NCBI RefSeq assembly: GCF_000145295.1
Contig: NC_014408.1
Coordinates: 870,001-902,000 of the forward strand
DNA from: Methanothermobacter marburgensis str. Marburg
GTDB lineage: Archaea > Methanobacteriota > Methanobacteria > Methanobacteriales > Methanothermobacteraceae
DNA: 32,000 nucleotides
Reading direction: 5' to 3'
Below are positions 1-11,404 of the stretch, piece by piece (position 1 is the stretch's first letter; every line of letters starts with the position of its first letter). The translations under genes and the position numbers were made by a program. The notes under the pieces were generated by a model. That model was not told the DNA's origin. It did no database searches and saw only the letters and a program-made list of their open reading frames with translations.

Positions 1-2679
1 TTCAAAGGTTTCAAGTATCCTCTCATATTTTGTGTCGTCCATCTCCCCATCCCGTGCCACTATCCTTATCTCTGCCACTGCATCAACGTCACTGAAGTCC
101 TCGCTGATGGTCCTCTTGATCCTGATGATATTTGACATGTTTTCAAGGGCGGTGGTGAATTCCAGTTCAATCCATTTAATGTGCCCATTCTCATCTTCCA
201 CTAGCTCATCTTCCACTAGCTGCAGTACCTCACCCTCTGTGAAGTCCGGCATATCCTTCCCATCAACCCTTAGCTTACCCTTCTGTATACCCTCATCTAT
301 GACCTCTCTGAGTTTCTCCTTAACGATTTCAGGTTCACACCCCATACCCCTGTACTTCTCCGTATATTCTCTCAGTATCTCAATTGTTGCCATTTTCATC
401 CGGGCCCGTTTTTCAAGTTCACCAACACCTATATCTATGGCATCAGGGGGGCACTCCTCACAGAGTTTTGGATTAACTATTATTTCGGGCGGCTTCAATG
501 AGACACTGCAATCCTCACCGATATGTCTGCACTTTGGGTCGCCTGGGTCGCCTTCCAGTACGCCGAGCCCAAAGAGCCTCCTCTTCACACCCTTCCTTAT
601 TGCTTCCTCCAGTACACTAGGACTCATTATCCTCATGGCACCGGGTGTGGTGTGGAAGCTCCTGAGTATCCTCTCTGTCTCAATATAGTCTTCCTGAAGG
701 TATTTCCTCTCGATTATCACAGGATCCAGGGATTCAAGGAGTTTATCCTCCTCAATGAGCCTGCTTTTTATCTCATAGTCAACCTTCACATCTGCACCGT
801 AGCTTGCCATCCCAAGGTCTATCCTTTCAAGTCCTGAACGTGAGGGTACAAATACCATCCTGTAAAGGTTCCTTATACTCTCCCTGTCCTCAGCTGAGAC
901 TGACTTTATCTTCTCCCTCACCTCCCTTTTCTGTTCATCTGTAAGGGAGAGTTGCCTGTCTGATTCAACAGCCATCCAGGCAAGTTTTGTCTTTATGTGT
1001 TCAACAAGCTGGTACCTGTGTGTATCATCCGCCTTGAGGAATATCAGGGTATTCTTGTAGACCCTGGGCTTTTCGCCCTTAAACTCAAGGAAACCAGTAC
1101 AGTCATCGGCGTCCTCAAGTACTATGAGCTTGAGTTTCATGTCATCAGGGACATCGGAGGCGGAAGATGGCCAGATGTAGACACTGAAAATCTTCTTACC
1201 TGTTATCTCGCCGAGAAGGCGCCTCTCCTCATCCCTGACATCCTCATCCCTTATGTTCTCCTTCTTCCTGAGGACTATGGCGTTGAGGTTGGCCTCAGCA
1301 GAGAAGTAGTAGAGGTCCACCTGCTTGTGTATGTAGAATAGCCTCTCAATCATCATGTTGAGGGCCCCGTCTATGATGGACATGGGGATCTCAGACTCCA
1401 GGCAGGCCATCTTTATATCCCTTATGGTTGCACCGTCCCTTACCCCTCCCCCTGAGAATGAGTACAGGAATATTGATCTCGCTATCCTTGTGCCTATCAT
1501 GTAGGGCTCGTACCCCCTGAGTTCCCTGTCAATGATCCTGGCACCTGCATCGGGGGATGTTATATCGGCGGCTATGATGCTATCAAAATTGTTACCTGTG
1601 AACCTCAGGAACTCCCTTTTGAGGTTACCTGACTCCAGTGGAAAGTCTGATAGCCTTATAACTGGTGTGCTGGATGATATGAGCCGGTTCACCACCATGG
1701 CAAGTAGTCTCAGCACACCCCTTGTCCTCTGGAAGTTTGGGAACGAACCCCATCTCTCATAGAGGACGTCTATAACCTCTGGCTGGAAGGGGTAGCTCTT
1801 CCTGAATACCTCACGATAGTCGGCTGCGTTCATACCCTCAGGGAGGATGCCCTCAGATTCTGCCTTTTCAGTGAACTCCGCTATAACATCAATGGCCGCT
1901 GATTCATCCACCCTCTTAAACAGCCTCTTCCTTATGACAGAGTAGATCTCGTCGTCCTCGACGGGTGTGAAGATCTTCTCTGTCCTCCCCAGAACCTTTG
2001 TGAGCTGATGGAAGAGTTTCTCTGCGGCTTCATCATAGTGTTCAAGGGAACTTGATGGGAGTGTCACCACCAGTGAAACTCTCTCGAGGGCTGATGCTGC
2101 CTGGCTTAGCTCCTGCATGAATGCCAGGAGCTGGCCTGCAAGTGTGGACTCCCCAACAGTCACACCGCTTGCCTTCACCGCGTACTCGAGGAGTTCATCC
2201 ATGAGTATCAGCACCGGCTGCTTCTCTCGGAGGAGCCCCATGATCTTATCCATACCCGGGGAGGTCATCCCTGAGAATTCCCTTACCTCCCCACGGAGCT
2301 GCCTCTCCATTTCAGCCCAGAGTGTTGTTTCACTGGCGTCCAGGGCGTCGCCTGAGAGCACAACTCTGGAAGCCCCTATATCACCTGCCCTGTGGTAGAG
2401 GGATATGAGGGTATGGGTTTTACCCCCACCGAAGGGTGTCTGGAGCTGTATCACAGGGTCGCCGCCCCTGCCCTCGAGTCTGTCACCAACGATATCCATT
2501 ATGTTCCTGAGTCCACGGGTCATGTAGGTTTTCCTGAAGAAGACATCAGGGTCCTGGTACTCTGCTGGTGCCTCCCCCTTGTGGACACTCCACAGGTTGG
2601 CTGCGAAGACGTCCAGTGAGAGCCTTTCCCCCATTATGTCCTCATGTGGCTCAGCAATGTTTACAAATGGCCTCATCAT
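1..2679 (-). CDS. DUF499-type P-loop ATPase (BrxC/PglY-like). The first 893 codons are in the window; the 3' end lies beyond the left edge.
   Basis: The gene is absent from the ORF track because it has no stop codon inside the window. The reverse strand is open from ATGATG at 2679 (SD TGGAGGAGG at 2682-2690) down to position 1, spot-checked at both ends. My translation gives MMRPFVNIAEPHEDIMGERLSLDVFAANLWSVHKGEAPAEYQDPDVFFRKTYMTRGLRNIMDIVGDRLEGRGGDPVIQLQTPFGGGKTHTLISLYH. Walker A is FGGGKTH (about 2410-2433), followed by a Walker-B-like VLILMDELLEY. The Ser-rich plus-strand ORFs over this span look like antisense shadows. Confidence 0.75.
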   Translation of the reverse strand, partial: MMRPFVNIAEPHEDIMGERLSLDVFAANLWSVHKGEAPAEYQDPDVFFRKTYMTRGLRNIMDIVGDRLEGRGGDPVIQLQTPFGGGKTHTLISLYHRAGDIGASRVVLSGDALDASETTLWAEMERQLRGEVREFSGMTSPGMDKIMGLLREKQPVLILMDELLEYAVKASGVTVGESTLAGQLLAFMQELSQAASALERVSLVVTLPSSSLEHYDEAAEKLFHQLTKVLGRTEKIFTPVEDDEIYSVIRKRLFKRVDESAAIDVIAEFTEKAESEGILPEGMNAADYREVFRKSYPFQPEVIDVLYERWGSFPNFQRTRGVLRLLAMVVNRLISSSTPVIRLSDFPLESGNLKREFLRFTGNNFDSIIAADITSPDAGARIIDRELRGYEPYMIGTRIARSIFLYSFSGGGVRDGATIRDIKMACLESEIPMSIIDGALNMMIERLFYIHKQVDLYYFSAEANLNAIVLRKKENIRDEDVRDEERRLLGEITGKKIFSVYIWPSSASDVPDDMKLKLIVLEDADDCTGFLEFKGEKPRVYKNTLIFLKADDTHRYQLVEHIKTKLAWMAVESDRQLSLTDEQKREVREKIKSVSAEDRESIRNLYRMVFVPSRSGLERIDLGMASYGADVKVDYEIKSRLIEEDKLLESLDPVIIERKYLQEDYIETERILRSFHTTPGAMRIMSPSVLEEAIRKGVKRRLFGLGVLEGDPGDPKCRHIGEDCSVSLKPPEIIVNPKLCEECPPDAIDIGVGELEKRARMKMATIEILREYTEKYRGMGCEPEIVKEKLREVIDEGIQKGKLRVDGKDMPDFTEGEVLQLVEDELVEDENGHIKWIELEFTTALENMSNIIRIKRTISEDFSDVDAVAEIRIVARDGEMDDTKYERILETFE

Positions 2680-2692
2680 AACCTCCTCCAGT

Positions 2693-5353
2693 TCATTTAT
2701 AATCCTTCAGTGTTTTCTGTCTTGTTTTCTCCTTGAGGCTCTTCATCATGGTCTCCCTGTTCACAATTAAACCCTCAAGCCACTGCTTTTCCATGCAGTT
2801 TGGCAGGAACTCTATTATTGCCTGGGCGACACGGTAGAAGCTTTCACTTGTACCGTAACCTGTCTCTAGGAGAAGTTTCTCAAGTTCTTCCTTTCTGCCC
2901 TCACTCCATAACCTGGCTGCAAGGTGAAGGGCGTCTATGAGTTCTGTGGTGTCATGGTCCTCACCCCTTTTATCAGGTCCTAGGACTGTGACCTTACCCC
3001 TCTGTATCCTTATGAAGCCTGCCCGGCTGGTGTTGAGGTCTATGCCAAGGCTACCAGCCAGTTTCCTTGCCTCATCGAATTCCACTTTGGAGTTCTCGAA
3101 GTTCCACCTGTAGAAGAGGTAGAACCTTGTGAGGGGTGATAGTTCATCTGCAAACCCATTATCCAGGATCCTCCTTATGGCGAAGTCGGCCGCGACACTC
3201 CTTATATCATCCAGGAGCCTGGAGCCCCTGACCTCCTCGCCATTGTATTTGAGGATCTCACTGTACTTCCCTATAACCTCCAGGCCGGCGCCTATGGCTG
3301 CTATGAAGAAGTCAGGGCCGCTTATACCCTCCTCCCAGAGGTACTCCAGCTTCTCACCGAGGACCTCCTTCAGTTCGGCCTGGACCTCCTCATAGTAGCC
3401 CGTTTTCTTCTCAAAGTCCGGTTTACGCGCCACGATGTAAATGGATGATGCAAGGGCTGCTGATTTCTGGGCGCGCATACGGGCCCTCATCTCGGTGAAT
3501 ATAGGCCATGAAGCCGTTACTATCAACCCGGAGTCCAGGAGGGAGTTTATAACGGTCTCCCAGCCGTGGGTGGTCTTATGGGCGTATACTATGTTTGCAA
3601 TACCTCCCGGTCTGAGTACACGGTGAATTTCCCTGAAGGAGTCCCTCAGCATTGATTCAAACTCCTCACTTGCCTCATCCATACTCTTATCATTGGTGTA
3701 GGCAACCATTTCACCCCGCTTGGGGGTGAGGGGTGTTATGAAGAGGTCAGGGTAGAGGTCACCGATGGCCCTCTTAAGCCACACGTAAAAGAAATCTGAT
3801 AGGTAAGAGTATGGGACATTATCATAGTATGGTGGATCAGTGAAAACAGCATCAAAATACTCATCATCAAACGGAAGGGAAGTTGCGGAACCTTGAACAA
3901 CCTTGGGGGTATTCTCATTTTTATTGAGTTTACTCAAGTGCTCTAATGGTCTAAGTATCTGTCTTTTCATACTATACCATGTCCCTGAAAGGATTGGTGA
4001 AAATGGATTTAGCTCTGAATAATCAAAAGACATTGGCAAAGCTTGCCTTGCGAATGTGTTAGGTATAAACTCCCACTGAGGATGCCATCTACACAAATTA
4101 GTAGTAAAATCACTCATTCTACTAACCACTAAAGTTATATAAGACACTAAAGCTTTTGCATAACCTTCATCATATCCTTCATCAAGCATCAAATGGTGTG
4201 CCTGACGGATTTTCTCGGTGAATGTTATGAGTGCAAGTTTTTGTCTTGAATTGAAAAGATCACCCCAGGTGTTAAGGCCATAATTTCTAACAGAAAATGC
4301 TCTTTCAGCCCCACTACCCTTCCCCCGGGGTGTTGGCTCATCTGGGACCGGGTCTATTCCCCACCGGTCCATGAGTTCATCTCTTTTCTTTTCCAGGTAT
4401 CCATTGGCTTCCATGTAGGCTTCCAGATCCTTTTCTGTCGCGAGGCGGTAGGTTTTGCCACGGCGCCTTGGGTGTGTGAGTACCACGGCTATGAGCCTCT
4501 CCCCGGCCTTTCCCTCCTGAAAGAGTCTGCGGGTGTCAGGGGCGGGTATGGTTGAACCGCAGACCGGGCATGTCACGATGGCACTTGAGATGGTTCCCCT
4601 TGAGGGGTCAAAGTCAGGGTCCTCCACGATTTCAAAGTCAACACCAGCACTGGACACCACTGGTTTAAGGGCTATCTGTCTGTTCTTTTTCTTAGCAAGC
4701 CAGTACTGTCTCATGAGAGGTACCTCCACTCCACAGTCAGGGTTCTGGCAGGGGAGTGTCCTGGCCCATATATATGCTGCGGGTACTGAACCATCCTCAT
4801 CAGGTGGATAGAAGCGTGAGAGCTCCTCCTCAGCCTCCTCACGGACCCATTCACCCCACCTCTTAACATCCCTCAGGAGTGGTGGTTCACTGTCAGCCCA
4901 GGACTCATCAACCCCATACTTCTGGGGGTACTCAAGGGTGCACTTCTGTATCAGGACAGCCACCGGGTTGAGGTCCATACTGTAGGTTTCACACCCCAGA
5001 CGGAGGGCCTCAAGTGGTATGCTGCCACCACCACCGAAGGGGTCCAGGACACGTGGTGGGCGACCATGGTACTCCCTTATATCCCTCCGGGCCCTTTCAA
5101 TCATCCCCTGATTCAGGCTGTTTTCCCATAGGCTCAGATCCTCGATGAACCTCTTAACCTTAACCTCCTCCAGGTCATCATCGGCGACCGGGATCAGGCT
5201 GGCGTAGATGGTGGCCCGGCTGCTTGCAAGGGGCCTCCTTGCCCACCAGATGTGCAGTGTTGATATGTGGCCGTGCCTGATGTTCTTTTCCCGGGCAGAA
5301 TTCTCACTCACCTTTGAAACTGGGAACGTCCTCTCAATGAATCTCTCATCCAT
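2693..5353 (-). CDS. DNA methyltransferase with a DUF1156-type N-terminus and an internal Zn-ribbon (N6-adenine/N4-cytosine class, DPPY motif)
   Basis: An 886-aa ORF. The N-terminus reads FPV...HIWWARRPL. SAM motif I is VLDPFGGGGSIPLEA, the Zn-ribbon is CQNPDCG...CPVCGS, and catalytic motif IV is FTDPPYYDNVPY. The ATG at 5353 follows a GGAGGAA that lies within the last codons of the upstream helicase gene, 3 nt after that gene's stop. Confidence 0.85.
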   Translation of the reverse strand: MDERFIERTFPVSKVSENSAREKNIRHGHISTLHIWWARRPLASSRATIYASLIPVADDDLEEVKVKRFIEDLSLWENSLNQGMIERARRDIREYHGRPPRVLDPFGGGGSIPLEALRLGCETYSMDLNPVAVLIQKCTLEYPQKYGVDESWADSEPPLLRDVKRWGEWVREEAEEELSRFYPPDEDGSVPAAYIWARTLPCQNPDCGVEVPLMRQYWLAKKKNRQIALKPVVSSAGVDFEIVEDPDFDPSRGTISSAIVTCPVCGSTIPAPDTRRLFQEGKAGERLIAVVLTHPRRRGKTYRLATEKDLEAYMEANGYLEKKRDELMDRWGIDPVPDEPTPRGKGSGAERAFSVRNYGLNTWGDLFNSRQKLALITFTEKIRQAHHLMLDEGYDEGYAKALVSYITLVVSRMSDFTTNLCRWHPQWEFIPNTFARQALPMSFDYSELNPFSPILSGTWYSMKRQILRPLEHLSKLNKNENTPKVVQGSATSLPFDDEYFDAVFTDPPYYDNVPYSYLSDFFYVWLKRAIGDLYPDLFITPLTPKRGEMVAYTNDKSMDEASEEFESMLRDSFREIHRVLRPGGIANIVYAHKTTHGWETVINSLLDSGLIVTASWPIFTEMRARMRAQKSAALASSIYIVARKPDFEKKTGYYEEVQAELKEVLGEKLEYLWEEGISGPDFFIAAIGAGLEVIGKYSEILKYNGEEVRGSRLLDDIRSVAADFAIRRILDNGFADELSPLTRFYLFYRWNFENSKVEFDEARKLAGSLGIDLNTSRAGFIRIQRGKVTVLGPDKRGEDHDTTELIDALHLAARLWSEGRKEELEKLLLETGYGTSESFYRVAQAIIEFLPNCMEKQWLEGLIVNRETMMKSLKEKTRQKTLKDYK

Positions 5354-5356
5354 GAA

Positions 5357-7681
5357 TTATTCCTCCATTCTCCTTATCTGTTCAGCGGGTACAATGTACC
5401 TTACCTCCTCTCTCCTGAGGGGTTCAAGGTTACTGTATGGGTCCTGTATCACTGTGAGTTCCGGATCGGTGCCGGCATTGTAGACCACGTACAGCCAGTA
5501 GTTCTCCCTGAACCTCCGGGCCTTGAGCCATTCATTCTGTGTCAGTTCAACATTATCCCTTCCTCTCCTTGCCTTGACCTCAATGTATCTGATCTCTGAA
5601 TCAGAGATTGATCTGACATCGAATCCAAGGTTCTCCCCTGATACGTCCTCGGGGATCCTTCCGTGTCTCCTCTCATGTTCCATTGTAATCTTCATGCCTA
5701 TCATCTCTATGTCCTCTCTCCCCGGTATCTCAGGGGCTTCCACGTGTATAACTCCGAGGAGTTCTGGTGGTGAGGCTGTGAGGGTCTCCTCCATCTCCAT
5801 CTCCCTTTCAAGTTCCCTCATTCTCTCCTTGTATTCCTCGAGTCTTTCCTCCTCGTTTCTTATGGCTATGCCCATGTCCTCCCCCTGGTCGAGGCGATCG
5901 TAGTATTCAAGGAGTTTTTCCTGTGATGTGTCTATGAGGTATTTTATGGATCTCAGGCCGTACTTCCTCTTTATACCTGTTTTCCTCTTCCTTTCATCCT
6001 TGAGTTTATCCATGTACCTCATCACGGATTCGGTTGCGGCTGCGGTGACCCCTTCCTCATTTATTTCATCAACAACGGGGTGTCTGTCGGGTACGAGGTC
6101 CCAGAGGATCATGGGGCTTACCTCCACAACCTCTTCGCCGTTATCGTATAGGGCGAATACCCTTTCACCTGCACTTTCGTTCCTTCCATCTGTGACTCTG
6201 CCCCTGTAGAACCACACCGTCCCCCTGTACCTGCCGGAGGGATCCCTGAAGGTCGAACCCCTCAGGAGCGAGTCTCCAAACCTCTTACCTGTGTACCTTA
6301 TGGTGGCCTCAAGGAGGGGGTGGCCGAAGGATATGAACTCTCCTTCATCTACTCCGGGGTTGAAGGTGAGGTTCCTGTATTCCTTCCTGAGTGCCCCGTA
6401 CCGCCTTCTGAGTTCATCGTCCCAGAGGCGAAGGAGTTGCCTGGGTGTTCTGAGGGTGTACATTCCATTCCTTTCAGTGTATTTCCACCCCATCTTTTTG
6501 AACACTGCTCTGAAGAATTCCTCCACATACTCTGGTGCAAGTTTTCTCTCCTTTATTATGCGCTGTATATCCTTCATCCGGGTGTAGTCCACTTCAACTG
6601 CCAGCTGTTCATCCATTATCCTCTTAAGTATATCCTCCTGTGGCTTGAGGAGTTCTTCTATCTCCTCATCCCTGATTTCTCCCCGGAGGGTCATCTCTAT
6701 TATCCTTGATATGTCGCGTTCGGTGTATATCTCACCGATTACATCGTAGACCTTATCCGATCCTATGTCCTGTCTGATGCTGTCCAGTTTCTCAAGGAGC
6801 CTCCTCATTACGAGGCCCTCACGGGTGTTACCGGCCACGAGATTGTATATGTGTACATCCCTTCTCTGCTTGTACCTGTGTATCCTCCCCATCCTCTGCT
6901 CAAGGCGGTTGGGGTTCCATGGGATGTCATAGTTGACCATTATATGGCAGAACTGCAGGTTTATGCCCTCACCCGCGGCCTCGGTTGCAACCATGACCTG
7001 TTTGTTTCTGCGGAAATCATCCTCTGCTGCTATGCGTTCATCCATGCTCATCCCGCCGTGTATGGTGCATACGCTGTATCCCCATGACTCTATCTTTTCG
7101 AGAAGGTAATCGACGGTGTCCTTTGATTCACTGAATATGAGGATCTTCTCATGGCCTATCTCCTCAAGGATCTTTTGAAGCTCCATTAGCTTGGTCTCGG
7201 ATCCGGATTTGAGGAGTCTCTCTGCATCCTCTATCAGTCCTTCGAGTGTCGAAACCTCGGCTTTAAGTTCAGGGATGGAGTCCGCCAGTGTGCTGCCCTC
7301 GAGGGAGCTTTCGATCTCCCATATCCTCCTCTCCTCAAGGTCGCTGTAGTCAACCGACGGCAGGTCGCTGTAGTCGCCAGACACCTCTCTCATGGATAGT
7401 GATTCAATGTTCTCCATGAGCTGGATGCACCTGTCCCTCTTCCTCATGAGGGACCTCATCACCGCGTATATGCTTGAGGCCATCCTCCTCTGCAGGAGCA
7501 TCATGGCGAATGCATGGGCCCTCCTATCAGTTGCGATGGCCCTGTTGTATTGCTCTGTTATGTAGCGTGAGATCTCATTGTAGAGTTCCATCTCGGCGTC
7601 ACTGAGGTTGAAGCTGTGGGTGTGTGTATATCTCCTGGGGAATATGGGTTTCCCATCGAAGTCCCTGAGTTCCTCCTTCAC
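5357..7681 (-). CDS. SNF2-family helicase, C-terminal fragment: helicase-C lobe, long coiled region and a C-terminal PD-(D/E)xK (DUF3883-like) nuclease-type domain
   Basis: A 774-aa ORF. Helicase motifs are MVATEAAGEGINLQ (motif V) and RMGRIHRYKQ (motif VI). The C-terminus reads GFDVRS...IRYIEVKARRG...WLYVVY, giving a D...EVK signature. The reading frame stays open upstream of the nominal GTG start and continues the helicase sequence (RFLLKPELIQEARRNRDNPLFIRRVKEELRDF). Confidence 0.8.
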   Translation of the reverse strand: MKEELRDFDGKPIFPRRYTHTHSFNLSDAEMELYNEISRYITEQYNRAIATDRRAHAFAMMLLQRRMASSIYAVMRSLMRKRDRCIQLMENIESLSMREVSGDYSDLPSVDYSDLEERRIWEIESSLEGSTLADSIPELKAEVSTLEGLIEDAERLLKSGSETKLMELQKILEEIGHEKILIFSESKDTVDYLLEKIESWGYSVCTIHGGMSMDERIAAEDDFRRNKQVMVATEAAGEGINLQFCHIMVNYDIPWNPNRLEQRMGRIHRYKQRRDVHIYNLVAGNTREGLVMRRLLEKLDSIRQDIGSDKVYDVIGEIYTERDISRIIEMTLRGEIRDEEIEELLKPQEDILKRIMDEQLAVEVDYTRMKDIQRIIKERKLAPEYVEEFFRAVFKKMGWKYTERNGMYTLRTPRQLLRLWDDELRRRYGALRKEYRNLTFNPGVDEGEFISFGHPLLEATIRYTGKRFGDSLLRGSTFRDPSGRYRGTVWFYRGRVTDGRNESAGERVFALYDNGEEVVEVSPMILWDLVPDRHPVVDEINEEGVTAAATESVMRYMDKLKDERKRKTGIKRKYGLRSIKYLIDTSQEKLLEYYDRLDQGEDMGIAIRNEEERLEEYKERMRELEREMEMEETLTASPPELLGVIHVEAPEIPGREDIEMIGMKITMEHERRHGRIPEDVSGENLGFDVRSISDSEIRYIEVKARRGRDNVELTQNEWLKARRFRENYWLYVVYNAGTDPELTVIQDPYSNLEPLRREEVRYIVPAEQIRRMEE

Positions 7682-7686
7682 CCTTC

Positions 7687-8571
7687 TTATGAAGAGTGGG
7701 TTATCCCTGTTCCTCCTCGCCTCCTGTATGAGTTCAGGTTTGAGAAGAAACCTGGTCTGAGGAGGTCCAGGAGGAGGCGGAATGCGTCGGGGTCCCCGCT
7801 GTGTGGAGTTGCGGTGAGGAGCAGCATATGGTCTGATGTCCTGGAGAGTATCTGCCCCAGTCTGTACCTCCTTGTCATGTCCTTCTTGTTCTCCGACCTG
7901 ATCCGTGCACTCATCTTGTGTGCCTCGTCAACCACTACGAGGTCCCACCTTGTTGATGAGAGGGATGACATTACATCTTCCTGTTTTGCGAAGTCAATGG
8001 AGGTTATGTAGCTGTTCTCAACCATCCATGGGTTTTCACCCTGCCTTGAACTCATATAGGGGCGGTCCATGATCACGAAGTTCTCCTGGAATTTATCCTT
8101 CATTTCACGCTGCCACTGGGCCTTGAGGTGTCCCGGTGTTACTATGAGGACCCTGCTGGCGACTCCCCTTAACTTCAGTTCCTTTATGATCATCCCCGCC
8201 ATTATGGTTTTACCGGCGCCGGGGTCATCGGCTATCATGAACCTCATATGGGGCATCCTTAGGGCGTAGCCGTATACTGCCTCAAGCTGAAAGGGCAGGG
8301 GGTCTATGCGGGATGTGTTCATTGCGAGGTAGCTGTCAAAGAGTGATGCGTTCCTGAGGCGGTAGGACTCGATGCCCATGAAGAATTCATGTGGTTCAGC
8401 CCCGAAATCCGTGGTCCTCATCACCTCAACCCGTTCAAGGTCCTCCCTGGTGAGTATGCTGTTTACAGTGGAGTTGGTATCCACTGTGGTCCCGAAGATT
8501 ATTATATTCTCTCCGCTCTTCTTGGAGTTAAGGACCCTGACCGGTTCCGGCCAGAATGGGCCCCTTATCAC
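7687..8571 (-). CDS. SNF2-family helicase, N-terminal fragment (motifs I-III)
   Basis: A 294-aa ORF with a GTG start at 8571, 5 nt after GAGGAGGGA. Motif I is ADDPGAGKT, motif II is VVVDEAHKM (DEAH), and motif III is LLLTATPHSGDPDAF. It ends in an out-of-frame tail (SNLNSYRRRGGTGITHSS*). Confidence 0.8.
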   Translation of the reverse strand: MIRGPFWPEPVRVLNSKKSGENIIIFGTTVDTNSTVNSILTREDLERVEVMRTTDFGAEPHEFFMGIESYRLRNASLFDSYLAMNTSRIDPLPFQLEAVYGYALRMPHMRFMIADDPGAGKTIMAGMIIKELKLRGVASRVLIVTPGHLKAQWQREMKDKFQENFVIMDRPYMSSRQGENPWMVENSYITSIDFAKQEDVMSSLSSTRWDLVVVDEAHKMSARIRSENKKDMTRRYRLGQILSRTSDHMLLLTATPHSGDPDAFRLLLDLLRPGFFSNLNSYRRRGGTGITHSS

Positions 8572-8796
8572 GCATCCCTCCTCTATCAGACGACCACCCC
8601 TGTAAATGTAATTTCTTAATGCATTATGTTTAAGCTTAGATTGTCCAATTTTTTCATTTATTCTATTAATCTATAAAGGTTTCCATTTTTGGTTCCCCCC
8701 ATCAAATAAGGCTGTCTTAAAATGGATCTGATGAACTGACGGTTGATGGGAACTGCATCAACAACTATTAAGGTTGTCTTACATTAATTATAATCC

Positions 8797-10074: not shown

Positions 10075-10171
10075 GTTCAGTACCCACTAAATGATGTGTG
10101 GAAGTCAGGCTATCCTTGCGTGTGAGTTTGTGTTTGATGATGTTCAGTGCCCCCTAAATGATGTGTGGAAG
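10075..10171. repeat. Two-copy direct repeat (30 nt, period 67). Copy 2 contains the stop codon and last 5 codons of the TPR gene.
   Basis: Copy 1 (10075-10104) is gttcagtacccactaaatgatgtgtggaag and copy 2 (10142-10171) is gttcagtgccccctaaatgatgtgtggaag. They match at 28 of 30 positions. The TPR gene stop (cta on the plus strand) is at 10154-10156. Confidence 0.7.
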
Positions 10172-11404
10172 GAGTAGCAGGATAAAAATGTAGGTTAACA
10201 GTACACAGATCATTATTGTGGAGTGTCTCAGGGCACGTGGATGTCCACCATTTACACGCAGGTAGCATGGCCCAAGAACAAAAAGGATGGAACTCAAAAA
10301 CCCATCAATGTGTTCCAGGGCCCATTCAAAAAGTAAATGCAGGTCTCCGGTTTTCCATGTCATGGTGAGGGTGTACATGACCCTGCTACTCTCCTGTGCC
10401 AGGTATGGCAGGATAAGCGCCATGAGAAGAATCAGCGGCCCGAAGAGGATGGGAAGGGATACTGCTGCCAGGATACGATCCCCTGACTCCTCAGGCTTTA
10501 TCAGTTGCCGGATTGATAGATACAGAAATGCGAATGGGGTGAAAATCAGGGCCCCCAGGACCATTAGCAGTTCACTACGTGGCCTTTCCTTCAGTAATAT
10601 GTATATGGCTGCAGCCGTAAGGGCTCCCATTACCAAGGTGCCCGCAAACTCAGCTCTGAAAATTATCAGTATGAACTGGGCGAGGGTGATTGCCGTGAAG
10701 GCGTATGAGATGACTGTGAGTGCCCTGAAGGGGTATGGGTAGATGGACTCAGGGAGGTCCTCCTCGATGGGGACACCGTTGGCTGTATCAAGTGCTATTT
10801 TAAGACATTTCTCAGAGGCCCATTGGTTCCCGAGTGCCTCAAAAGCCTCTGCCTTGCCGATCCATACCGGGACATTCCCTGCATCCAGCCTGATGGCCCT
10901 ATCAAAGCATTCCAGTGCCTCCCGGTATCTCCCATGTTTATTCAGGGAGAACCCCATGTAGACCCATGATTGGGCATGGAGTGGATCAATGGCTGTGGCC
11001 TTTTCAAATGACTTCAGTGCCCCTTCATCTTCGCCCCACTGGTGAAGTATCAGACCCCTTCCATACCATAGGGTGGCGTTACTGGGGTTCTCATTGATGG
11101 ATGATTCATAGAGTTCAAGGGCCCTCCGGTAACATGCGTCTCTCTCCTCATCCTCCCCGAGGATACTGTGGATGTAGCCCATCTTATGCCAGGCCCGTGG
11201 ATGGGGACTTATTTCCGTCAGTCTCTCAAGGGCCTTCAGGGCATCCCTGTATCTTCCCATATTCTGGTTTATGTTACTCAGGAGCATCCATGCCGCCGGG
11301 TTTTCAGGGTCAGCCTCCGTAACCCTCCTGGCAATGTGGAGGGCCCTCTCAGGGGCACCCCACCCCACCAGAAATTCGGCAACTGCAAGCATGACCCTCT
11401 TCAT
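10154..11404 (-). CDS. TPR-repeat protein with a C-terminal polytopic membrane domain
   Basis: A 416-aa ORF. The N-terminal ~210 aa show repeated TPR-like A..W...G......Y.EA...F..A....P patterns. The C-terminal ~200 aa are hydrophobic, with multiple predicted TM helices. Confidence 0.7.
   Translation of the reverse strand: MKRVMLAVAEFLVGWGAPERALHIARRVTEADPENPAAWMLLSNINQNMGRYRDALKALERLTEISPHPRAWHKMGYIHSILGEDEERDACYRRALELYESSINENPSNATLWYGRGLILHQWGEDEGALKSFEKATAIDPLHAQSWVYMGFSLNKHGRYREALECFDRAIRLDAGNVPVWIGKAEAFEALGNQWASEKCLKIALDTANGVPIEEDLPESIYPYPFRALTVISYAFTAITLAQFILIIFRAEFAGTLVMGALTAAAIYILLKERPRSELLMVLGALIFTPFAFLYLSIRQLIKPEESGDRILAAVSLPILFGPLILLMALILPYLAQESSRVMYTLTMTWKTGDLHLLFEWALEHIDGFLSSILFVLGPCYLRVNGGHPRALRHSTIMICVLLTYIFILLLLPHII

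Follow-up and report, generated by a model that had tools for sequence, protein, structure and literature searches.

Which system is encoded by the three tightly packed genes at the left end of a 32,000-nucleotide (nt) stretch of the chromosome of Methanothermobacter marburgensis str. Marburg (NC_014408.1, positions 870,001 to 902,000; hereafter the window), is it still functional, and which of its proteins determines the DNA target? An earlier note, made from the sequence alone, had described a helicase-nuclease, a DUF1156-type methyltransferase and a DUF499 ATPase forming a defence system of restriction-modification (R-M)-like character. With a probability of about 0.8, the locus is a degraded copy of the Hma (helicase-methylase-ATPase) system, which is also known as the Type-1 DUF499-centred BREX-related (BR) system. 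The most useful new point comes from the comparison of related sequences: a cassette of the methyltransferase gene hmaB has been swapped while hmaA and hmaC stayed essentially identical, which argues for HmaB as the seat of specificity. The genes were defined by the listing of open reading frames (ORFs) and their translation, and the following features, with coordinates given as positions in the window, are referred to throughout.

5357..8571, minus strand: hmaA, a pseudogene in two frames (ORFs 8571-7687 and 7681-5357); the intact allele encodes 1071 amino acids (aa).
7687..8571, minus strand: 5' ORF of hmaA (ORF listing, Pfam), 294 aa, comprising the N-terminal region and RecA-like lobe 1, with the motifs GAGKT (8206-8220), DEAH (7918-7929) and TATP (7804-7815).
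5357..7681, minus strand: 3' ORF of hmaA, 774 aa from GTG 7681, comprising RecA-like lobe 2 with motif VI QRMGRIHRYKQ (6866-6898) and the nuclease with D in GFDVRS (5609-5626), E-x-K in IEVKA (5570-5584) and E in QNEW (5528-5539).
7737..7738, minus strand: frameshift site of hmaA, CC versus CCC in intact alleles.
2693..5353, minus strand: hmaB, 886 aa, a DUF1156 N6-adenine-type DNA methyltransferase (Pfam, PADLOC), with FGGGG (motif I, 5024-5044), Zn-ribbon cysteines (4559-4750) and DPPY (3827-3838).
3854..4201, minus strand: variable cassette of hmaB, aa ~385-500, forming the C-terminus of the nested insert, right before DPPY.
1..2679, continuing past position 1, minus strand: hmaC, a DUF499 ORC/Cdc6-like (BrxC-like) AAA+ ATPase, 904/905 aa, with Walker A GGGKT (2416-2430) and Walker B ILMDE (2194-2208).
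8572..8796, no strand: AT-rich divergent intergenic region of 225 bp between hmaA and an amino-acid permease gene.

The Hma profiles of PADLOC are the best matches of all three proteins. Both pieces of the helicase-nuclease match the HmaA profile PDLC00659 best (E 7.6e-72 for the N-terminal and 2.3e-102 for the C-terminal piece), and they jointly span positions 20-1138 of the 1176 profile positions. HmaB (ADL58529/WBF09126) is covered almost over its full length by PDLC00661 (E 3e-129) and PDLC00660 (E 1.3e-123). HmaC matches PDLC00662 with an E value of 1.5e-124, the generic DUF499 profile being the runner-up (1.6e-38). DrmD/BrxH, generic Type II methylases and BrxC, respectively, are beaten by a wide margin. 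Moreover, Pfam backs every family that had been proposed before (DUF499, DUF1156, SNF2, Helicase_C and DUF3883). HmaA matches SNF2-rel_dom (1e-17), Helicase_C (7e-28) and NOV_C (1.5e-24), HmaB matches DUF1156 (2.8e-22) and weakly N6_N4_Mtase, and HmaC matches DUF499 (1.7e-37). NOV_C is the Pfam name of the PD-(D/E)xK domain that appears as DUF3883 in the source annotations of HmaA and its relatives. The identification as Hma thus follows from three independent full-length profile matches, each of which is the best of its protein, together with the support from Pfam.

The catalytic motifs are retained in all three proteins. The D, E-x-K and E residues of the HmaA nuclease are kept in all aligned homologues and correspond to D1084/E1104/K1106/E1121 of the Halomonas meridiana HmaA. 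In HmaB, the DUF1156 region (aa 10-60) is followed by motif I (104-110), the four cysteines (202/207/262/265) and DPPY (506-509), and in the AlphaFold2 model a large insert separates the strands 122-126 (strand 2) and 500-504 (the DPPY strand). HmaC possesses the Walker A and B motifs and no N-terminal HEPN extension. The top Foldseek match of its AlphaFold2 model (model confidence, pLDDT, 85) is the N-terminal region of BrxC in the BrxC-BrxB-PglZ complex 9zll (TM 0.52-0.53, target-normalised), followed by ORC/Cdc6. The variability profile shows that the C-terminal third of HmaC is variable. The C-terminus, which is the most variable part, is modelled with helices at 844-860 and 881-893 and with loops at the positions of RRM strands, where DSSP assigns no strands.

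The Hma system was proposed in 2021 as a candidate system that is present in 26 phyla (Payne 2021, PMC8565338), and it later served as a scaffold for finding 'embedded' defences (bioRxiv 2024.01.29.577857). In 2024, it was demonstrated that HmaA from H. meridiana alone protects E. coli from T4, that this activity needs the SNF2 motif VI and the residues D1084/E1104/K1106/E1121 of NOV_C, and that NOV_C nicks supercoiled DNA (PMC11232893). The triad was re-described in 2026 as a Type-1 DUF499-centred BREX-related system in 2446 taxa, 203 of them archaea, and an R-M-like mechanism was proposed (PMC12839542). The R-M-like defence character suggested by the earlier note fits both Hma and this model. 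Its statement that the mechanism had not been worked out stands in part: the system has a name and HmaA has been tested experimentally (PMC11232893), whereas the Hma papers do not settle what HmaB and the ATPase HmaC do or which motif is methylated. No experiment with an archaeal Hma system was found in the literature.

The Marburg locus shares the three families, the order A-B-C and the single coding strand with the Hma system of H. meridiana and with the PADLOC definition (Payne 2021; Liu 2024), which asks for three adjacent genes on one strand with no more than three genes embedded in the operon. Conservation with the Halomonas system extends to the SNF2 motifs I, II and VI as well as to the D, E-x-K and E residues of the nuclease. 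In contrast to Halomonas, the host is a thermophilic archaeon, hmaA is frameshifted, and the Methanothermobacter HmaA (1071 aa versus ~1190 aa) is ~100 aa shorter. Moreover, the Halomonas locus carries Septu and other systems, whereas the Marburg locus contains no embedded genes; inserts have been reported for 62.7% of the Hma loci. The curated set of the 2024 preprint admits no pseudogenes and each gene only once, and the split hmaA places the Marburg locus outside this set. The Type-1 BR systems likewise consist of a DUF499 ATPase whose ORC/Cdc6 AAA+ core resembles BrxC but differs from BrxC/DUF6079, a DUF1156 N6-methyltransferase with a nested Zn-finger insert and a Swi2/Snf2 helicase with an active C-terminal PD-(D/E)xK nuclease, and they lack the DUF3780/HKD genes of Type-2 and the PglZ/iSTAND genes of Type-3 systems (PMC12839542). 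The family description further includes an N-terminal Tudor domain and an internal inactive REase in the helicase and a C-terminal RRM/ferredoxin-like domain in the ATPase, of which the last finds no confirmation in the HmaC model. Among these systems, the Marburg ATPase represents the variant without the N-terminal HEPN fusion.

Could the locus instead be a reduced BREX or DISARM system? The helicase also matches the PADLOC profiles of DrmD (E 5.5e-55 / 9.5e-86) and BrxHII, HmaB weakly matches PglXI (1e-12), and HmaC matches BrxC (5e-8) and folds like it, in agreement with the relationship to BrxC/PglY that had been stated for DUF499 ATPases. This alternative is nevertheless extremely improbable, because the Hma profiles score far higher for all three proteins. 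The NCBIfam scores lie below the cut-offs for DrmD (375 versus 610) and for PglY (15 bits versus 1700), so that the matches of HmaC to BrxC/PglY profiles are marginal and the relation is one at the level of the fold. No gene for PglZ, BrxL, BrxA/B, iSTAND, DUF3780, PLD, DrmA/B/C or DUF1998 (DrmB) is present within 10 kb of the locus; the lack of a PglZ or BrxL partner had already been noticed. The neighbours within this distance encode the permease, a TPR protein, a glycosyltransferase-response regulator and PolX on one side, and a membrane protein, YbjQ, NurA, HerA, Mre11 and Rad50 on the other. Genes for PglZ, iSTAND, DUF3780, PLD or DISARM proteins were not found elsewhere in the window either, and the remaining window genes are housekeeping genes. 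Moreover, the DrmD matches are weaker than those to HmaA, and the literature ranks the family as BREX-related rather than as BREX.

The relatives of the Hma system can be told apart in a similar way. Type-3 BREX (BrxC, BrxXI/PglXI and BrxHII) contains a homologous ATPase, methyltransferase and helicase, and it is its BrxC on which HmaC superposes best (9zll). However, Type-3 BREX possesses PglZ, BrxA and BrxF, none of which occurs at the hma locus, where the nuclease is fused to the helicase, and the similarity is distant. The triad of PLD-helicase, DUF1156 and DUF499 proteins (NF042962-4; Type-2 BR) shares the ATPase and methyltransferase families with hma. The Marburg proteins reach 169-208 bits with these NCBIfam profiles (cut-offs 1000-1200), the hma helicase bears a PD-(D/E)xK rather than an HKD/PLD nuclease, and there is no DUF3780 gene.

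Is the Hma system of strain Marburg still functional? The extent of the helicase-nuclease gene from 8571 to 5357 proposed by the earlier note was confirmed, whereas the single reading frame was not: a 1-nt deletion at 7737-7738 splits the gene into ORFs of 294 and 774 aa, which also bears out the suspicion that the helicase is in need of repair. Apart from the frameshift, HmaA can be aligned over its whole length with intact homologues (1108-1138 aa), and an alignment with four of them places the change of frame between '...LLDLLRPGFFS' and 'PELIQEARRNRDNPLFIRR...'. Compared with the syntenic intact gene of strain CaT2 (1071 aa), hmaA differs by 7 substitutions and 1 indel in 3216 nt (99.75% identity). 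The indel replaces tcaaaCCCtgaa of the intact alleles by tcaaaCCtgaa, and it is the only one in the 3216-nt alignments with CaT2 and with the JGI metagenome contig L037. An intact HmaA of 1071 aa is encoded by CaT2, by another M. marburgensis assembly (P0246) and by metagenomes. The frameshifted pair is present in the deposit of 2010 (ADL58531/ADL58530) and in the PacBio deposit of 2023 (WBF09128/WBF09127, chromosome CP069376), and the same frameshift occurs in the Logan assemblies of the separate runs SRR22315765 and SRR22315767. Since two deposits and two separate read assemblies agree on it, the frameshift is a true mutation that the type strain carries rather than an artefact of assembly.

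The break lies after helicase motif III, within the conserved block NPLFIRRxKE that joins the two RecA lobes, and HmaA is very likely inactive in Marburg, which has probably lost restriction. Judged from the alignment with the intact allele, the lesion is recent, since no further decay has accumulated. By contrast with hmaA, the hmaB and hmaC genes look intact, as they are of full length and retain all motifs. A still functional split gene, working as a two-chain SNF2 motor of 294 and 774 aa or through ribosomal frameshifting, would allow restriction to persist. Such residual function would be compatible with two ORFs that are otherwise undamaged and deposited as annotated proteins, and with a GTG of the 3' ORF only 5 nt past the stop of the 5' ORF, and these points speak against a complete loss of HmaA. 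However, the break severs the block between the RecA lobes, and GTG 7681 has no GGAGG within the 30 nt upstream, in contrast to the three real starts of the operon. Moreover, all 120 relatives of comparable length among the matches listed are single chains, no slippery heptamer of the type X XXY YYZ exists at the break, and with 7 substitutions from the intact allele the lack of decay shows only recency. A working split HmaA is therefore improbable. Programmed frameshifting was also rejected because the intact allele differs simply by the length of the C run. Runs of 2-3 C are too short for slipped-strand switching in phase-variable tracts, and phase variation at hmaA was dismissed on this ground.

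Which protein determines the target of the system? Sliding comparisons revealed that hmaB alleles with 95-100% identical backbones diverge sharply at residues ~385-500, with lesser variable patches near residues 201-240 and 321-357. This cassette is the stretch of highest entropy in an alignment of 52 family sequences. At least 8 cassette types occur among 17 Methanothermobacter-type HmaB proteins, and the types are 33-49% identical to each other, whereas the backbones are 86-98% identical. The cassette type is uncoupled from the backbone: Marburg shares its backbone with CaT2 and the HmaB protein P0003 and its cassette with strain THM-2. The clearest case is provided by Marburg, CaT2 and L037, which have hmaA (99.75-99.81% nt identity) and hmaC (99.8-99.9% nt identity) in common. 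The three hmaB genes carry three different cassettes that are 33-56% identical over ~350 nt, between flanks of 95-100% identity. The hmaA gene is intact in CaT2 and L037, and between these two alleles HmaC is identical and HmaA differs by one residue.

In the AlphaFold model, the large insert that separates core strand 2 from the DPPY strand ends with the cassette, which is probably a target-recognition module that sets the methylated sequence, as the pattern of divergence suggests. Three unrelated cassettes on near-identical HmaA and HmaC proteins imply that neither the helicase-nuclease nor the ATPase holds a matching specificity. Because the cassette has been replaced without a compensating change in HmaA or HmaC, the attack arm would have to read its targets via HmaB. 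The stronger proposal, that the ~115-aa cassette is the sole determinant of the DNA target for the entire system, with HmaB residing within a restriction complex as in Type I and Type III systems, is held tentatively, at somewhat less than even odds. An R-M-like mechanism in which specificity comes from the HmaB subunit only is rated at, or slightly below, even odds. The shuffling of HsdS, Mod and PglX likewise involves a variable module that is swapped within a conserved modification gene, with the motor and nuclease genes remaining constant, but the cassette has no homology to known target-recognition domains (TRDs), and its recognition role is deduced from this parallel.

Several observations weigh against assigning the specificity to HmaB. 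The cassette is modelled with a pLDDT below 50, and no solved relative was found. One experimental study reported that phage from a host expressing HmaB kept the same sensitivity to HmaA; a coupling of HmaB to HmaA of the R-M type is thus not established by any study. According to Casini 2023, the PacBio motifs of strain Marburg are listed in its Data S1 Table S2; literature searches yielded neither a methylation motif for HmaB nor anything further on Methanothermobacter methylomes, so that the activity and specificity of HmaB remain inferred. Alternatively, the cassette could be a surface that diversifies to escape viral inhibitors such as Ocr-like decoys, with specificity residing elsewhere or being absent. 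The poorly modelled cassette without a recognisable DNA-binding fold would suit such a role, HmaC too has a variable C-terminal third, and the 2026 analysis assigned the sensing of invaders to HmaC (PMC12839542). However, the same analysis called the nested methyltransferase insert a TRD, and the cassette is located inside this insert, directly ahead of the DPPY strand. Furthermore, sharp borders in genes of 95-100% identity and the re-use of modules across backbones are the classic signature of specificity-domain shuffling, and HmaC is identical in two alleles with differing cassettes. A purely escape-driven diversification is therefore regarded as unlikely.

HmaB is also encoded outside the window. 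M. marburgensis possesses a second HmaB paralogue (P0017; ADL57687/WBF09916) of 881 aa, which is 82% identical and carries another cassette type. In Methanothermobacter sp. DP, its counterpart (L035:10001-12652) is solitary, located between LysE and hydrolase genes with neither hmaA nor hmaC. Judged from this gene, and from the named matches, which include no further HmaA or HmaC of M. marburgensis, the second Marburg gene is probably solitary as well. It may be an orphan methylase left after the loss of a system, or it may confer protection against other Hma alleles. HmaB-like methylases are furthermore encoded by the Sulfolobus spindle-shaped viruses STSV1 (AJ783769/NC_006268, 12883-15045) and STSV2 (JQ287645/NC_020077, 9705-11849); they are 27% identical to HmaB over 73% of its length (E 2e-55) and may serve viral self-protection against Hma-type systems.

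How are the genes arranged? The hmaABC operon is compact, with all genes on one strand in the order A-B-C and no embedded genes. The tight packing that the earlier note had described for the three minus-strand genes was reproduced exactly: the stop-to-start gaps are 3 nt between hmaA and hmaB (5354-5356) and 13 nt between hmaB and hmaC (2680-2692). GGAGG is present 5-8 nt upstream of the starts, at 8577-8581 before the hmaA GTG 8571, at 5362-5366 within the final hmaA codons ahead of hmaB, and at 2682-2689 directly past the hmaB stop ahead of hmaC; the latter two had been pointed out before. Since GGAGG is abundant in the window (198 occurrences versus 129 expected from shuffles), a single site is weak evidence, and the argument rests on the spacing of the three sites. 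The left border of the locus does lie beyond the window, as had been stated, but just 39 nt of hmaC (the last 12 codons and the stop) are missing.

On the other side, the 225-bp gap at 8572-8796 proved to be as AT-rich as claimed, with a GC content of 34.7%, compared with 50.7% for the hma locus and 51.3% for the remaining window. This spacer is presumed to contain the promoter region for both hmaA and the permease gene. It is 99% identical to that of CaT2 and can only partly be aligned with those of THM-2 and M. wolfeii. An imperfect 20-nt direct repeat (8700-8719 / 8762-8781; 80% identity, 62-nt spacing) lies in the spacer and may be a regulatory site or due to chance. Scans of the window for tRNA and Rfam families revealed no RNA features.

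Is the locus an accessory island? Five genomes were compared (Marburg, CaT2, THM-2 (CP043480), M. wolfeii and sp. DP), and all five share the order of permease gene, hmaABC, the gene for a 439-aa membrane protein, ybjQ and the nurA-herA-mre11-rad50 genes. The hma locus itself is free of a GC anomaly. The island proposed by the earlier note is thus not borne out in its composition or its placement, but the locus exceeds its flanks by far in divergence and mosaicism. In the comparison with THM-2 and M. wolfeii, identity amounts to 93-100% for the proteins of the right flank, but to 73-89% for the Hma proteins and to 55% for the adjacent membrane protein. The comparison with CaT2 gives the opposite picture: a 12.6-kb tract extending from the permease gene across hmaABC as far as nurA shows 97-100% nt identity except for one segment of hmaB, and the flanks are 85-93% identical (polX, the glycosyltransferase-response regulator gene and herA 85-90%). 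Relative to THM-2 and sp. DP, the flanks are 96-100% and the hma region is 43-91% identical. A site that is shared by all genomes with housekeeping-level conservation had been named as an argument against a defence locus; the site is indeed shared, but the conservation is not of the housekeeping kind. Outside the genus, the nearest HmaB relatives among species-representative genomes are 51-63% identical and dispersed among thermophilic bacteria and archaea. The close matches of HmaA, HmaB and HmaC included no protein named M. thermautotrophicus, and no direct search of the Delta-H genome was made. This suggests that the locus is absent from M. thermautotrophicus Delta-H, a conclusion weakened by its reliance on names that are missing from match lists.

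In these comparisons, the locus behaves as a hypervariable allelic defence locus at a fixed site rather than as a presence/absence island, and the most likely picture is that alleles pass between lineages through homologous recombination in the conserved flanks. A different view would be that the SNF2 protein is a remodeller that forms a module with the methylase and cooperates with the neighbouring NurA-HerA-Mre11-Rad50 proteins in a housekeeping role in chromatin or repair. The constant site next to the DNA-end-resection operon in five genomes and the inconspicuous GC content agree with a housekeeping function. However, it is very hard to reconcile with Hma proteins that are so much more divergent than the right-flank proteins in the same genome pairs, with the shuffling of cassettes and the near-identical tract across lineages, which form a defence-like pattern, and with the scattered relatives outside the genus. 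Furthermore, the type strain shows no apparent ill effect of its inactivated effector, and the Hma family has experimental anti-phage activity. A housekeeping role is thus very improbable.

Several genes around the defence locus are variable as well. The 439-aa polytopic membrane protein is encoded immediately left of the window on the strand opposite to hmaC (L001:15404-16723). It belongs to no Pfam family and has only a faint STT3-like match. Its gene, which moves together with the hma allele, diverges more than any other in the region (55% aa identity to THM-2 and M. wolfeii, but 99% nt identity to CaT2). In M. wolfeii, NurA, HerA and Mre11 are 57%, 76% and 66% identical to their Marburg counterparts, whereas PolX, encoded 10 kb away, is 98.5% identical (L028:17438-22634 versus L001:17381-21239); a divergent allele seems to have taken the place of the DNA-end-resection operon beside hma. 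The TPR gene at 10154-11404 is 100% identical at the nt level to that of THM-2 and is missing in M. wolfeii and sp. DP, in which the permease gene directly follows the response-regulator glycosyltransferase gene. In biogas-fermenter contigs with a CaT2-type hma locus (L029/L031/L034, ~680-3240), a gene for an 850-aa UvrD-like helicase is located upstream of polX. CaT2 has two small unannotated genes at this site (L030:1612-3084) and the window has none, and the site is a second variable spot close to the hma locus. The THM-2 assembly contains three split genes within 22 kb, encoding the glycosyltransferase-response regulator (495+212 aa), HmaC (328+595 aa) and NurA (97+269 aa). The split of the THM-2 hmaC was therefore rejected as a case of independent decay, an assembly error being equally likely.

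How might the Hma system work? HmaB would methylate adenines in a short host motif, which it would read via the insert nested in its catalytic domain. As its fold and family suggest, HmaC may act as a BrxC/ORC-like AAA+ scaffold or sensor that assembles or licenses the complex. HmaA, being an SNF2 translocase and PD-(D/E)xK nickase, would attack DNA without the mark, an activity that has been shown for the bacterial homologue only. The specificity of both protection and attack would be provided by HmaB, as it is by HsdS in Type I systems, by Mod in Type III systems and by PglX in BREX. In Marburg, the attack step would have been lost, leaving a modification-only remnant (HmaB) and an orphaned ATPase, and the strain probably still methylates its own DNA with HmaB. 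Marburg is the host of the virus PsiM2 and takes up conjugal DNA from E. coli; both properties are consistent with a strain without restriction and are no proof of it.

What does this mean for Methanothermobacter and for the Hma family? The system has already been named, surveyed and partly validated, and in its Marburg copy the effector is most probably dead. Strain Marburg serves as a model organism in industry and genetics in addition to being the host of PsiM2, and the broken effector, with hmaB and a second hmaB kept, may help to explain its permissiveness. An intact allele such as that of CaT2 matters when DNA transfer into such strains is designed. Moreover, the genus provides a natural series of HmaB cassette swaps on constant HmaA and HmaC proteins, which is an inexpensive route to the target recognition of Hma. 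If the cassette indeed sets the target, published PacBio data for Methanothermobacter strains together with the at least 8 cassette types in one genus would allow Hma motifs to be assigned directly.

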